IMG/VR virus record: IMGVR_UViG_2713896773_000025
Origin: a virus
Lineage: Duplodnaviria; Heunggongvirae; Uroviricota; Caudoviricetes
DNA: 32,043 nt
Direction: 5' to 3' (one strand)
The translations under genes were made by a program, and so were the position numbers. Below, one piece after another: positions 4,371-8,510 of this stretch. The notes beneath the pieces were generated by a model that saw only the letters and a program-made list of their open reading frames with translations, did not search any database and was not told where the DNA came from. Position 1 is the first letter of the stretch. Each line of letters opens with the position of its first letter.

Positions 4371-4595
4371 ATGTCTGGAAAAATTAAAGAAAATTCAGCT
4401 CGCAACAACTACGGATGCTATGCCACCGGCGCGATTCGTGCCGAACGTAATGGCGAATATTCCAGGGCTGCTGAATTATGGGGTAAAGCGTTGATGTTTG
4501 CTCGTGGCACTTCCGGTCGATTCTGGGCCACTCGTCGACTGGAGTTCTGCGCGAACGCGGCTACTCGCGGCTGGGGGATTTCGGATGAAAGCTAA
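4371..4595 (+). CDS. small regulator-like protein, possibly ANR/PerC-like (74 aa)
   Basis: Internal ATG at 4371 two nt after the upstream stop; GEYSRAAELWGKAL...ARRLEFC motif reminiscent of ANR-family small regulators; family call is tentative. Confidence 0.4.
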   Translation: MSGKIKENSARNNYGCYATGAIRAERNGEYSRAAELWGKALMFARGTSGRFWATRRLEFCANAATRGWGISDES

Positions 4596-4776
4596 AGAGT
4601 TCAACCAAAAATATCCGGTTGGTAGCGTCTTTATTTATCAGCCGAATCCGGTTTTACGTGGTGGTAAGGTCGTCAGCACCGTTGATCTGGCTCGCGACTG
4701 CCGCGATGTATCGGTAGTTGAAATAAATCAGGAACCTTATTTCGCCAATATTAAATCGCTGATACCTGCTGGCTGA
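4585..4776 (+). CDS. small protein, paralog copy 1 (63 aa)
   Basis: N-terminal AKEFNQKYPVGSVFIY matches AKTFNQRFPVGSQFHY of the ORF at 7365..7574; internal ATG at 4585. Confidence 0.5.
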   Translation: MKAKEFNQKYPVGSVFIYQPNPVLRGGKVVSTVDLARDCRDVSVVEINQEPYFANIKSLIPAG

Positions 4777-4856
4777 AATAACTTTTAATTAAACCTGTTT
4801 TAAATATGGCGTAAACCTGCCGGGGGTGGCTTACGCCTGAATTAAGGAGTTCTGTA

Positions 4857-5576
4857 ATGGAAAATAAAGAGAAATATATCCAGAGAATTAAAAAGCTGCT
4901 CGCGATGGCGCGTAATAACTCCAGCGCCGAAGAAGCCGCACTTGCCCTTAGCCGCGCTCAGCGCCTGATGGAAACCCACAAACTGACTGAGGCTGATGCT
5001 GATTTGATGGATATCAATGAAGCTTCTACCCAGAAGGCCCCCTCTCATGCTGAGAAGATGCCGGAATATATGGCAATACTGGCAGAGATGGTCGCGCGCG
5101 TTTTTGGCGTGAAGTTTTACACCAGCCATGGCGCTGAGCAGTGGGGCAAGCCAGCAAAACGCACCATACACTATTACGGCCCCGACGAACGCCCTCAGAT
5201 AGCGGCATATTCATTCGAAGTTCTGGGTAAGCAACTGGCGAAAGCCCGCCGTGATTACCTCTCCACATTACGCAAGAACATCAAACAGGCCACAAAAGTT
5301 GCCCGCGCCGATACCTTCTGTTCCGCCTGGGTCAACGGTGCTTATGCCGTTGTCAGTGATTTCGCTGTTACGGAGGCGGAGACAACGCTGATGGAGTGTT
5401 ACCGCAGCAGGAAATTAAGCGAAGGCATGAAAAAGCTGGAACCGCGCAAACCCGGCAAAGCCAGGGGAACGGATAAGGCGGAAAACGAGGGATATCTGGC
5501 TGGCCGCAATGCGCAGCTGCATCACGCGGTAAGCAGTTCAGCTAATAAATGCGAACAGATTGGAGTGACAAAATGA
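4857..5576 (+). CDS. DUF2786-like phage protein (239 aa)
   Basis: AAGGAG RBS; N-terminal KYIQRIKKLLAMARNNSSAEEAALALSRAQRLM resembles the DUF2786 signature recalled from phage early regions. Confidence 0.6.
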   Translation: MENKEKYIQRIKKLLAMARNNSSAEEAALALSRAQRLMETHKLTEADADLMDINEASTQKAPSHAEKMPEYMAILAEMVARVFGVKFYTSHGAEQWGKPAKRTIHYYGPDERPQIAAYSFEVLGKQLAKARRDYLSTLRKNIKQATKVARADTFCSAWVNGAYAVVSDFAVTEAETTLMECYRSRKLSEGMKKLEPRKPGKARGTDKAENEGYLAGRNAQLHHAVSSSANKCEQIGVTK

Positions 5577-5926
5577 AAATCTCGCCTCAACTGGAAACTA
5601 CGCCAGTCAAAGAACTCGTAGCAGCCGGGCATGCGCTGGCGAAAGAACTACATTGCGCTGAGTGTGCCGCGCTGGTTCGCAATCTGGCAACAGCGCTTGA
5701 TGTCCAGTTTGCTCGTGCCAACGCGCTAACGGTTGTTGATGTTAGTGACCCTAATGTGCTGGCGCAGCTGGATGAGCTGGAAGCTGTGAACGAGCTGTTT
5801 TTACGTGCAAAGCAGCTGATGTATCAATCAGGAGGGGCACCAATCGAAAACTCATTGAATCCGATTGATGCATGGCTGTATGACGCAGAACGCGCTGCCG
5901 CTGCCGCTGCCGGTAAAGGAGAGTGA
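5573..5926 (+). CDS. hypothetical protein (117 aa)
   Basis: ATGA start/stop overlap with upstream gene; Ala-rich C-terminus; no family recognised. Confidence 0.5.
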   Translation: MKISPQLETTPVKELVAAGHALAKELHCAECAALVRNLATALDVQFARANALTVVDVSDPNVLAQLDELEAVNELFLRAKQLMYQSGGAPIENSLNPIDAWLYDAERAAAAAAGKGE

Positions 5927-5927
5927 T

Positions 5928-6173
5928 ATGGCTACCAACGAAATTCTCATAGTTAACAAAATTGGGCGCGCTGATGGTGATTACGGATGCTACTGCCCTC
6001 ACTGCGGAGAGCCGATGTTTTTCAGCGATGATGAACTGGAAGACATCCGAGGCTCTCAATACCAGCATTCTCGGGTGATAAATCTCAGAACCGGTGAACG
6101 GTGTGATGGATGGCTGGAAGTATCTCCCAATGCGGGTTACTCGCGAATCTTGTTCGACCAGGGAGATGAATAG
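5928..6173 (+). CDS. small Cys-containing protein, putative zinc ribbon (81 aa)
   Basis: CYCPHCGE followed by a downstream RCDGW segment suggests a Cys-based metal-binding knuckle; starts 2 nt after upstream stop. Confidence 0.45.
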   Translation: MATNEILIVNKIGRADGDYGCYCPHCGEPMFFSDDELEDIRGSQYQHSRVINLRTGERCDGWLEVSPNAGYSRILFDQGDE

Positions 6174-6178
6174 AGAAA

Positions 6179-6438
6179 TGACCATCACCGAAATTTTGAA
6201 TACCGGACTCGCCTTCATGGGTTGGCTATTCATCATGGTCCAGGCCGGTAAGTGGTTTACATCTGTTGTCCTGAAATCGTGGGATAAACACCGCAAGGCA
6301 TCACGTCGCCAGAAGGCTGTTGATGAGTTGTACGACGCTTTCGATCTGCAGAGCATTGAGCCCGGAACAACCGTTCGTCTTGCCACAAAGGGCGCTCTGA
6401 CAATCATGATGTTTCGCTCTGAGGCGGATGCCAAATGA
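6179..6438 (+). CDS. small membrane protein (86 aa)
   Basis: Hydrophobic segment LAFMGWLFIMVQAGKWF near the N-terminus, then a basic stretch. Confidence 0.45.
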
Positions 6439-6605
6439 CAAACCGCAAAGTAAGAAGACTGCTGCGCATGCCTTTCAAATTCAGTAACCGTAAAGCGATG
6501 ACAGGCTGGCCATCAACGATACCCCGGCCTGGCAACGAGTGGTGCGACAAGAAGAAACGCAGCGCTGCACAGAACCGCTGGAAAAATCATGTGAGGTTTC
6601 TCTGA
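6435..6605 (+). CDS. small basic ORF (56 aa), below the ORF-track length cutoff
   Basis: ATG at 6435 overlaps upstream stop (ATGA) and its TGA at 6603..6605 overlaps the next ATG (TGATG); coupling pattern suggests a real gene. Translation MTNRKVRRLLRMPFKFSNRKAMTGWPSTIPRPGNEWCDKKKRSAAQNRWKNHVRFL. Confidence 0.3.
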   Translation: MTNRKVRRLLRMPFKFSNRKAMTGWPSTIPRPGNEWCDKKKRSAAQNRWKNHVRFL

Positions 6606-6979
6606 TGAATATAAATAAACATTCTGAGCGTAAGCCAGTGGTTTTCATTGCCGGTCCAATGACCGGGTATCACAACTTTAACCGCGATGAATTCAACGCT
6701 GAGGCTCGCATCCTGGAAGAGCGCGGCTTCACCGTTCTCAACCCGGCCATTCTTCCAGACGGCCTGCAGCATGAGCAGTACCTGCAAATTACATTGTCCA
6801 TGCTTGAGCAGGCTGATGCGGTATTCCTGCTGAACGGGTGGGAAAAGAGCACCGGCGCTACCAGGGAGTTTGATCGCGCCTGTGAGCTAGGGCTGCTGTT
6901 CCTTTACCAGGACTGGGAAAGCGTGTCGATTGCGATCCACCGTAAGCGTCACCCATTAACGGAGGTGAGTTATGCATAG
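6605..6979 (+). CDS. DUF4406 / nucleoside 2-deoxyribosyltransferase-like protein (124 aa)
   Basis: VVFIAGPMTG near the N-terminus and overall pattern recalled from the DUF4406 family; ATG at 6605 chosen over the GTG at 6539 because of stop-start coupling. Confidence 0.55.
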   Translation: MNINKHSERKPVVFIAGPMTGYHNFNRDEFNAEARILEERGFTVLNPAILPDGLQHEQYLQITLSMLEQADAVFLLNGWEKSTGATREFDRACELGLLFLYQDWESVSIAIHRKRHPLTEVSYA

Positions 6980-7187
6980 CGTAACGGGCTGCCAGTTCCA
7001 GGATAACGGTAACCGCCGAATCTGGTTCTTCCGCGATAACAGCCAGGTTGTCGAGTTGCTGGCGGTGCCACTTAAGCTGCGGTTCAACTATTACGACGCC
7101 AGTAACCGTAAGGTACGCAATAAGGGGACTCAGGCTGATATGAAGAAGGCGATTGAATCTTTCAAGAAACTTCGGGGGATAAAGTGA
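6972..7187 (+). CDS. hypothetical small protein (71 aa)
   Basis: Overlaps upstream gene by 8 nt; no family recognised. Confidence 0.4.
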   Translation: MHSVTGCQFQDNGNRRIWFFRDNSQVVELLAVPLKLRFNYYDASNRKVRNKGTQADMKKAIESFKKLRGIK

Positions 7188-7405
7188 TGGATATAGCTTT
7201 CATTATCATATTGCTGGCGATGTATTTAACACTTGGCTGGTGTTGGGCATGCATCCTTGTCCGATTAGTGGGATTAGCTAATTTATCCCGACAGAATTGC
7301 TGGTTTGCCTTTCTCTTATGGCCTTTGAGCATTATCGCGACCGATGCGAATCTGGAGGAAAACGATGGGACATCTCCTGAGAAATCTGACAGCAAAGACC
7401 TTTAA
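7184..7405 (+). CDS. small membrane protein (about 72 aa)
   Basis: Two hydrophobic segments (IAFIIILLAMYLTLGWCWACILV and CWFAFLLWPLSIIA); GTG at 7184 or ATG at 7187. Confidence 0.4.
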   Translation: MMDIAFIIILLAMYLTLGWCWACILVRLVGLANLSRQNCWFAFLLWPLSIIATDANLEENDGTSPEKSDSKDL

Positions 7406-7574
7406 CCAGCGCTTCCCCGTTGGCTCACAGTTCCATTATTACCTGACACCTGGTGTATCGGAGCGGGAAACTGTAATAACCCGCCCGGCAGCCAGGCATA
7501 TGCGCAATGGTCGTCTGGTTGTCAGGGGCGAAGGGAAAATCGGTGGTATATCAGTCAGCAAAATGAAACCTTGA
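7365..7574 (+). CDS. small protein, paralog copy 2 (69 aa)
   Basis: GGAGG RBS before ATG at 7365; N-terminal motif shared with the ORF at 4585..4776. Confidence 0.5.
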   Translation: MGHLLRNLTAKTFNQRFPVGSQFHYYLTPGVSERETVITRPAARHMRNGRLVVRGEGKIGGISVSKMKP

Positions 7575-7580
7575 AAGTAA

Positions 7581-7622
7581 GTCATTACAGCAGGCACTTC
7601 ATAAAGTGCCTGCTGTAATGAC
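7581..7622. repeat. perfect 19-bp inverted repeat with 4-nt loop
   Basis: GTCATTACAGCAGGCACTT cata AAGTGCCTGCTGTAATGAC read directly from sequence; lies between the last early accessory ORF and the gemA RBS. Confidence 0.85.
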
Positions 7623-7641
7623 AACCAACAGGAGAAATATT

Positions 7642-8118
7642 ATGTCCACGCCAGCAAAACGAGGCCTTATAGGTGCAATTAAAGCCGGTCAGGCATATCT
7701 GGGGTGGGATGAGGTAACCTACCGTAGTGTTCTGTCTCGCTTATGCAACGGTAAAACATCATCCACTAAATGCACCCTCGACGAGCTGCAGGCTGTCAGG
7801 GAATATATGCATGACAAGGGTTTTCCTCGCTACTCAGCAAAACACGGTCGACGCCCAAAGGTTGCCAATACGCGCGAGTCAATTCTTTCTAAAATTAACG
7901 CATTACTTGCAGATGCAAAACGTCCGTGGAATTATGCCGAGAAAATGTGCGATCATATGTTTCACGTCAAATACATCGAGTGGTTGACGACTGAACAGTT
8001 AACCAAACTCATGCAGGCTCTCAGCATTGATGCGAGTCGGCGAAAAAAGCGGGAGCGTAATAATGAATCTGGAACAGGTAACGGAGCTGCTGCCATCAGC
8101 AGTGATTCAAATAGCTGA
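7642..8118 (+). CDS. gemA: GemA-like regulatory protein (158 aa)
   Basis: ATG at 7642 with AGGAG RBS; KRGLIGAIKAGQAYLGWDE...YRSVL pattern recalled from the Mu GemA/DUF1018 family; sits immediately before the Mor-like gene. Confidence 0.7.
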   Translation: MSTPAKRGLIGAIKAGQAYLGWDEVTYRSVLSRLCNGKTSSTKCTLDELQAVREYMHDKGFPRYSAKHGRRPKVANTRESILSKINALLADAKRPWNYAEKMCDHMFHVKYIEWLTTEQLTKLMQALSIDASRRKKRERNNESGTGNGAAAISSDSNS

Positions 8119-8497
8119 CCTGATAGGCTTCCCGGCGACCGAGCAGCTTCTTTCTGCTTTTGGTGGCACCACGTTCCCGATAGGTAAAGGCCTCCGCGCT
8201 ATGGGGGCCAGCCGCGCAGCCCTCCTGCGCAATACTATCGGCGATGATAAAACCCAATTACTCATCAAGAATTTCGGCGGAGAAGTTCTCTATTTACCGC
8301 GCTGTGATCGTGCCCTTCGTGAATTACGCAACCGCCGCTTTCTCGCCGAGTTCGCCGAAGTGCGTGAACAAGGTTCATCCTCTCTTATGGCCATGACCTT
8401 TCTTTGCCCTAAGTATGGATTCAGCGATCGTTTTGGATGGCAGTTACTAAGCCAGCACAGACAAAACACATCAATCAATCAACAAGAACTTTTTTAA
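8063..8497 (+). CDS. mor: Mor/C-family transcriptional activator (144 aa)
   Basis: GGEVLYLPR...LRELRNRRFLAEF...YGFSDR resembles the Mor/C core GG.VYIPR...L..DL.I...F.G.N..EL...YG; overlaps the gemA 3' end. Confidence 0.75.
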   Translation: MNLEQVTELLPSAVIQIADLIGFPATEQLLSAFGGTTFPIGKGLRAMGASRAALLRNTIGDDKTQLLIKNFGGEVLYLPRCDRALRELRNRRFLAEFAEVREQGSSSLMAMTFLCPKYGFSDRFGWQLLSQHRQNTSINQQELF

Positions 8498-8510
8498 AAA
8501 GGTAATATAC

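Follow-up and report, generated by a model that had tools for sequence, protein, structure and literature searches.

A conserved 56-codon early gene of a Mu-like prophage whose predicted product resembles the N-terminus of the 30S-associated protein Sra

Sra (RpsV, 'S22', protein D; E. coli b1480), a basic protein of 45 aa, is a tight binder of the 30S ribosomal subunit (PMC10502375; 30S binding is also reported in PMC9959377). It is abundant in stationary-phase E. coli, its expression is linked to RpoS and ppGpp, and neither its binding site nor its role has been worked out (PMC10502375). A recent preprint describes Sra as a hibernation factor specific to the Enterobacteriaceae and likely born de novo, without mention of phages (10.1101/2025.11.04.686544). 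No paper was found in the literature on phage homologues of Sra, on DUF4752, or on the family of small phage proteins described below. Among better-known phage systems, ribosomal and ribosome-associated proteins encoded by phages, such as bS21, are clear orthologues of core ribosomal proteins, and lambda N is an arginine-rich-motif RNA-binding peptide.

The window analyzed here, the whole stretch of 32,043 nucleotides of IMG/VR record IMGVR_UViG_2713896773_000025, is a Mu-like prophage with its major ORFs all on the + strand. Two ORFs at the left end, of 685 aa and 297 aa, match in position and size the genes for the Mu transposase and the AAA ATPase in related prophages. Next come DUF2786/DUF7168, small accessory genes, GemA, Mor, and then the lysis and structural genes. 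ORF56 (6435..6605, + strand; 56 codons plus TGA), delimited from the ORF list, the sequence and comparative data, lies in the early accessory stretch, with GemA and Mor shortly downstream. Its upstream neighbor is a coupled DUF4752-family gene of 90 aa (6166..6438, + strand; Pfam PF15944, E 7e-37), and downstream is a coupled gene of 124 aa that is DUF4406 or nucleoside 2-deoxyribosyltransferase-like (6605..6979, + strand; Pfam PF14359, E 2e-27; phrog_355).

The ATG of ORF56 (6435-6437) and the TGA of the DUF4752 gene (6436-6438) overlap as ATGA, and the TGA of ORF56 (6603-6605) has one base in common with the ATG of the DUF4406 gene (6605-6607). A sequence-only reading of this DNA had described a basic 56-aa ORF wedged between two coupled genes, and it was found exactly there, overlapping its neighbors at both ends. 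That reading had also taken the coupling pattern of the region as an argument for translation. Junctions among the neighboring early genes are indeed equally tight (+1, -8, -4, -1, -8 and -4 nt), and we infer translation itself from evolution. An SD-like GAGG (6421..6424, + strand) lies 10 nt 5' of the ORF56 ATG, within the 3' end of the DUF4752 gene, as located from the upstream regions of eight homologues and a table of junctions; in most of these relatives the site is GAGGAGG or GGAGG. A second GAGG (6593..6596, + strand), within the last codons of ORF56 and 8 nt 5' of the DUF4406 ATG, is likely the SD for the coupled downstream gene, and relatives also carry GTGAGGT at this place. A scan for promoters and terminators gave fewer sites than shuffled sequences, and none was attributable to ORF56.

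Taken alone, a run of 56 open codons does not exceed chance, given that 49 ORFs of 30 aa or longer overlap positions 4500-8500. What is beyond chance, judging from the comparisons that follow, is the conservation of ORF56. Homologues in the protein database were 57-94% identical to it. When seven divergent copies were aligned by codon, synonymous sites were near saturation (pS 0.59-0.94) as against a pN of 0.09-0.37, and dN/dS was 0.08-0.21 in the divergent pairs for which it was measurable. Conservation of the frame in relatives had been named beforehand as one point on which the ORF should be judged, and it held up: the ORF56 frame was the only stop-free frame in 11 of the 11 homologues checked, under purifying selection, and one variant carried a clean in-frame deletion of four codons. 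A GAGG-type SD preceded the homologues in most of the contexts examined. That the sequence might be a chance open frame, or an untranslated non-coding RNA element, is extremely improbable. The region is rich in ORFs of such length, as just noted, but the conservation is specific to one frame, and an Rfam scan and RNA folding of positions 6400-6640 gave no Rfam match and no excess of structure (z = -0.05).

The neighborhood of the gene varied. The ORF56 gene and its DUF4752 and DUF4406 neighbors were found together in 14 fetched loci on Mu-like prophage contigs; the DUF4752 gene adjoins the ORF56 homologue in these 14 loci and not in five others (L009-L012 and L023). Homologues also occurred among unrelated genes, in two other Mu-like contexts, in a lambdoid nin region, where the copy lies between O/P-type replication genes and NinE/Q, and in a RecT/YqaJ/Dam region. 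Beside these unrelated neighbors the start and stop overlaps were usually present again. Conversely, the ORF56 position is occupied by another cassette in a related E. coli prophage. The slot thus does not require the ORF56 sequence, because the E. coli prophage has an unrelated small ORF there.

These observations also bear on whether ORF56 is only a translational-coupling bridge, which would link the DUF4752 gene to the DUF4406 gene by passing on ribosomes and an SD, while encoding a functionless peptide. The overlaps at both ends and the GAGG for the DUF4406 gene in the last codons are what such a bridge would show. We nevertheless consider it very improbable, since the amino acids are conserved while synonymous sites are saturated (a dN/dS near 1 was checked for and is not the case), and since the sequence is kept beside entirely different neighbors. 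Taken together, the homologues, codon statistics, single open frame and mobility exclude, for practical purposes, an origin by chance as well as a role as no more than a coupling spacer. The frame conservation, purifying selection, SD and unrelated neighbors strongly support translation of ORF56 on evolutionary grounds, and by this comparative evidence ORF56 is a genuine conserved protein-coding gene. Although called unlisted earlier, it is listed in public annotation: the exact protein is present in NCBI as a 'hypothetical protein' of Citrobacter freundii and E. coli (270 contigs), close variants are found in Enterobacter and Cronobacter, and gene callers call the gene in relatives.

The predicted translation, MTNRKVRRLLRMPFKFSNRKAMTGWPSTIPRPGNEWCDKKKRSAAQNRWKNHVRFL, is 56 aa and 6.8 kDa, with 16 K+R against 2 D+E (net charge +14) and a pI of 12.0. 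The earlier description of the product as highly basic therefore stands. Its single Cys (C37) is also real but is not conserved, being V in the homologues P0003 and P0006, and is probably irrelevant; metal binding or disulfide chemistry is unlikely because the Cys is variable. The description of the C-terminus as Trp-rich was a slight overstatement, as the three Trp are W25, W36 and W49, of which W49 is the conserved one.

Profile searches (E ≤ 0.01) placed at least 218 protein clusters in the ORF56 family. Every cluster with a source name was from the Enterobacterales (E. coli, Citrobacter, Enterobacter, Klebsiella, Salmonella, Phytobacter, Serratia and Cronobacter), and the clusters were named 'hypothetical' or 'prophage protein', with the sole exception of one 'ead/Ea22-like family protein'. 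In viral contigs the family was found at 61 loci. A HMMER search of 1.84 billion representatives returned only nine matches; one of these (P0008, 1173 aa) was a translated tandem repeat and was set aside as spurious. Two pattern scans of genome contigs gave matches with no locus confirmed, and so no distribution by species, and Pfam gave no family match to ORF56.

The closest described phage grouping is PHROG 1380. The phrog_1380 profile matched ORF56 at E 2e-5 (25.7 bits) over residues 39-55 only, which is the C-terminal motif, while an intermediate member of the family, P0012, matched it over its full length (7.5e-9). By tblastn, proteins of phiV10 and Ro157c2YLVW were 41-43% identical over 96% of the ORF56 query, and relatives of about 41% identity were found in phiV10, TL-2011b/c, Stx-converting, P1-like and 9NA-like phages, hypothetical wherever annotated. 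The PHROG 1380 relatives (phiV10p50/p51, 'VT2-Sa p08-like') and ORF56 have M-x-NRKA(K/R) at the N-terminus, (V/I/F)SNR(K/R) in mid-protein and K(R/K)SAAQNRWKNH towards the C-terminus in common, and are alike in size, charge and early accessory location. They differ in that identity is only about 40% and in that the PHROG 1380 type has a 9-residue insertion between the N-terminal motifs and another linker. Across the family, a basic protein of 55-70 aa with three motifs (NRKA[KR], SNR[KR] and [KR]SAAQNRWKNH) was recovered in alignments A3 and A4 and at the 61 viral loci, and ORF56 fits this description. The C-terminal basic motif (codons 41-52, KRSAAQNRWKNH; 6555..6590, + strand), placed by the phrog_1380 match to residues 39-55, was kept in all subtypes at the 61 viral loci; it defines the phage family and is absent from Sra. 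Members are encoded in the early accessory parts of temperate phages of enterobacteria (Mu-like early, lambdoid nin, recombination and phiV10 early regions). By these profile matches, ORF56 is a member of an uncharacterised, PHROG-1380-related phage family.

Several members of the family have features of their own. phiV10 (L002 2322-2692) and TL-2011b (L077 2328-2692) carry two tandem family paralogues (phiV10p50 and p51 in the former). The second paralogue of TL-2011b, at about 2501-2692, is unannotated, and the annotated upstream GTG start of phiV10p51 is probably too early. A subfamily from Serratia prophages (P0010, P0097-P0120) combines a Sra-like N-terminus, MAKRKSNRAARRLLCMPVWLSNRKQMSGWPSTI, with a C-terminal extension of 30-45 residues, which in P0010 ends in a Cys-rich tail (CTGCGK...CYGSDRCCP). 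Most members of this subfamily have precomputed weak PF08136 matches.

The N-terminal module of ORF56 (codons 2-22, TNRKVRRLLRMPFKFSNRKAM; 6438..6500, + strand) resembles Sra, as delimited by the NCBIfam match, a profile-profile alignment and the invariant columns. The NCBIfam model of Sra, NF007473, matched ORF56 at residues 2-21 with E 1.4e-4. The curated Sra cut-offs are 35 bits for NCBIfam (NF007473) and 25 bits for Pfam (PF08136, SRA_like); with 22.3 bits in NCBIfam and no Pfam match, ORF56 falls below both as a whole protein. The lambdoid member P0006 scored 35.0 bits with NF007473 (E 1.5e-8), exactly at the cut-off, and only 18.4 bits with Pfam. When NF007473 was run against an alignment of 31 family members, 29 matched at E ≤ 0.01 (best E 5e-10), and the two that were missed are N-terminally truncated. 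The relatives of the PHROG-1380 type, which have the insertion in the motif, gave no Sra match. Sra itself failed to reach E 0.001 in the search of 1.84 billion representatives, which at that database size was too stringent to recover it.

Comparison of the family profile with 13 Sra orthologues by hhalign gave a probability of 89.8% and E 1.8e-6 over 22 columns. N3 and R4, nearly invariant in the family, and S17 and N18, invariant in it, correspond to the invariant N4, R5, S18 and N19 of Sra, with a spacing of 14 residues in both. When the Sra core (MKSNRQARHxLG...KISNQxK) was set against ORF56 over the 22 columns, N, R, R, L, K, S, N and K fell at equal spacing, while Q6, H9 and G12 were not kept. 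Two controls were made with an Sra HMM of our own. ORF56 scored 9.8 bits, and the maximum among 5000 shuffles was 6.0 bits. In six-frame translations of 404 kb of fetched DNA (7,843 ORFs), the 19 best matches after Sra were all family members of the ORF56 type; ORF56 itself scored 9.7 bits against 8.6 bits for the best decoy, which is a thin margin.

Beyond this module the two proteins part. In a global hhalign profile alignment no score was gained past residue 22 and the C-terminal halves did not align: where Sra has TGRKRPAEK, ORF56 has the unrelated family motif, and an Sra-type C-terminal half (...TGRKR...) is lacking. Sra has no Trp and ORF56 has three. The two are both small (45 and 56 aa) and both very basic (pI 11.0 and 12.0), and their N-terminal 22 residues can be aligned, but Sra is encoded at the chromosomal bdm-sra locus and ORF56 in the early operon of a Mu-like prophage. 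No homologue of Bdm, the operon partner of Sra, was found near any member of the ORF56 family, and nothing therefore indicates a phage origin for the bdm-sra operon as a whole. ORF56 does not belong to the Sra family, because its score is sub-threshold, its C-terminus is unrelated, its locus is another and its regulation is presumably another. Homology of the N-terminal module to Sra is nevertheless probable on these alignments, and on present evidence Sra is the described protein that ORF56 would work most like. The similarity was already visible in databases, since several family members carry precomputed weak PF08136 flags, though no discussion of it was found. The new point about ORF56 is this N-terminal likeness, the protein itself having already been deposited.

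Structure prediction gave little that is specific. An AlphaFold2 model from a seven-sequence alignment had a pLDDT of 62.6 and a pTM of 0.21, with no globular fold, and was too poor for a fold search; low-confidence short helices were placed at residues 4-10, 17-24 and 44-55. Such a model is as expected for a basic peptide that would order on a nucleic-acid partner. Sequence searches of PDB chains with ORF56, the family profile and Sra found no significant resemblance. The best PDB match, the cell-division activator CedA (2bn8_A / 8ftd_Z), had E 0.23 and was rejected as chance; its likeness to the family profile A3 is weak and in two segments, KKPLRQQNRQIISYVPRTEP and QRWANQIRQEGE.

These properties leave room for a generic nucleic-acid-binding peptide whose target is not the ribosome, such as an ARM peptide acting on phage or host mRNA or on an antiterminator-type RNA, or a small DNA or nucleoid binder. 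In that case ORF56 and Sra would look alike through convergence or through a common RNA-binding motif, without having the same target. The extreme charge (+14 net, pI 12.0) and the prediction of short helices with no stable fold would suit such a peptide. So would the facts that the best-conserved part of the protein family-wide is the C-terminal motif, which has no counterpart in Sra, and that members of the PHROG-1380 type have no Sra match. Lambda N offers a likeness of this kind, a short basic helix with a Trp after a Gln-rich stretch (AQWK, compared with AAQNRWK in ORF56), which is a lead only, not evidence. On the other side, the Sra match is family-wide, is position-specific in the spacing of N-R and S-N, and is not reached by shuffles, and no DNA-binding or other domain model matches ORF56. 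We regard a generic binder as somewhat unlikely.

The genomic distribution suggests a further alternative, a small host-takeover, toxic or anti-defence effector directed at a protein target, in which the basic charge would be incidental. The gene is always in delayed-early accessory regions, as are the Mu semi-essential genes or the lambdoid exo-xis/nin accessory genes, and it is mobile as an independent single-gene module. Against this, ORF56 had no match in any functional family, and PADLOC gave no defence-system match for ORF56 or for five neighbors. The ORF56 sequence contains no pointer to a protein target, and the reading is itself compatible with ribosome binding. An effector of this kind seems distinctly unlikely.

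The reading we put first, at a little short of an even chance, is that ORF56 is a Mu-like early gene whose product, made by coupled translation, would bind RNA, most probably the 30S subunit at or near the Sra site, during early lytic development. The protein would be made early, by coupled translation within the long Mu-like early operon; it consists of two conserved basic modules with a variable linker between them and has no predicted stable fold. The first, x-N-R-K-A/V-R-R-L-L ... K-F-S-N-R-K, would be the module homologous to the Sra core, and the second, K-R-S-A-A-Q-N-R-W-K-N-H, is specific to the temperate-phage family related to PHROG 1380. RNA would be bound through both. The 30S subunit is proposed as the most likely target because the N-terminal module corresponds to the core conserved in a tight 30S binder, and on that subunit ORF56 might mimic, replace or compete with Sra, with possible effects on translation or hibernation. 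The sequence-only reading had suggested a nucleic-acid-binding peptide; the present evidence is consistent with this, and the Sra-core-like N-terminus sharpens it, with binding still a matter of inference. Even true homology to Sra predicts little of a mechanism, because neither the site nor the function of Sra has been established and no structure of Sra has been solved.

In concept ORF56 would be like phage bS21, a case of a phage bringing its own form of a small basic host protein associated with the 30S subunit, but ORF56 has only a 22-residue module in common with Sra, which is an accessory, non-essential factor. As a rather unlikely speculation, Sra may share ancestry with early genes of temperate phages, and perhaps have been domesticated from them, and ORF56-type proteins may imitate Sra by docking on the 30S subunit, so as to override or exploit hibernation when a prophage goes lytic in a resting host. 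If this were true, a phage family with the invariant N-terminal core of Sra would provide an alternative origin for Sra, and the N, R, S and N residues would be the functional core of Sra to mutate. Enterobacterial temperate phages would also be tampering with ribosome hibernation, a route of takeover that was not found described for the ORF56 family in the literature. If only a basic motif is shared, ORF56 would be an ordinary small phage gene with no function assigned, already annotated as hypothetical.

Some further features were noted in the window and in one related locus. In the Mu-like prophage of E. coli FDAARGOS_1303 (NZ_CP070045.1; L001 4532-4666), an unannotated hydrophobic ORF of 44 aa, VKYLFYALALVLAIYFMATGDDIRSDIYTAAVFVMSYIELREAA, lies just upstream of the DUF4406 gene. 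Its start codon, GTG, forms GTGA with the upstream stop, and its TGA forms ATGA with the ATG of the DUF4406 gene; it is wedged with the same coupling geometry as ORF56, and its product is unrelated. In the window, the 125-aa ORF at 5549-5926 more likely starts at ATG 5573 than at ATG 5549, and ATG 5573 overlaps the TGA of the DUF2786 gene as ATGA, as in the E. coli relative. For the 102-aa ORF at 5865 the most likely start is ATG 5928, and its PHROG match begins at residue 22. A perfect hairpin with a 19-bp stem, GTCATTACAGCAGGCACTT-CATA-AAGTGCCTGCTGTAATGAC, is found at 7581-7622 and takes up most of the 67-nt gap between the orf76 stop at 7574 and GemA, for which the likely start is ATG 7642 with AGGAG in front. 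With no T-run behind it on the + strand, the hairpin does not qualify as a classic terminator; lying where the early genes give way to gemA-mor, it could serve in RNA processing or stability or as a palindrome bound by a protein.
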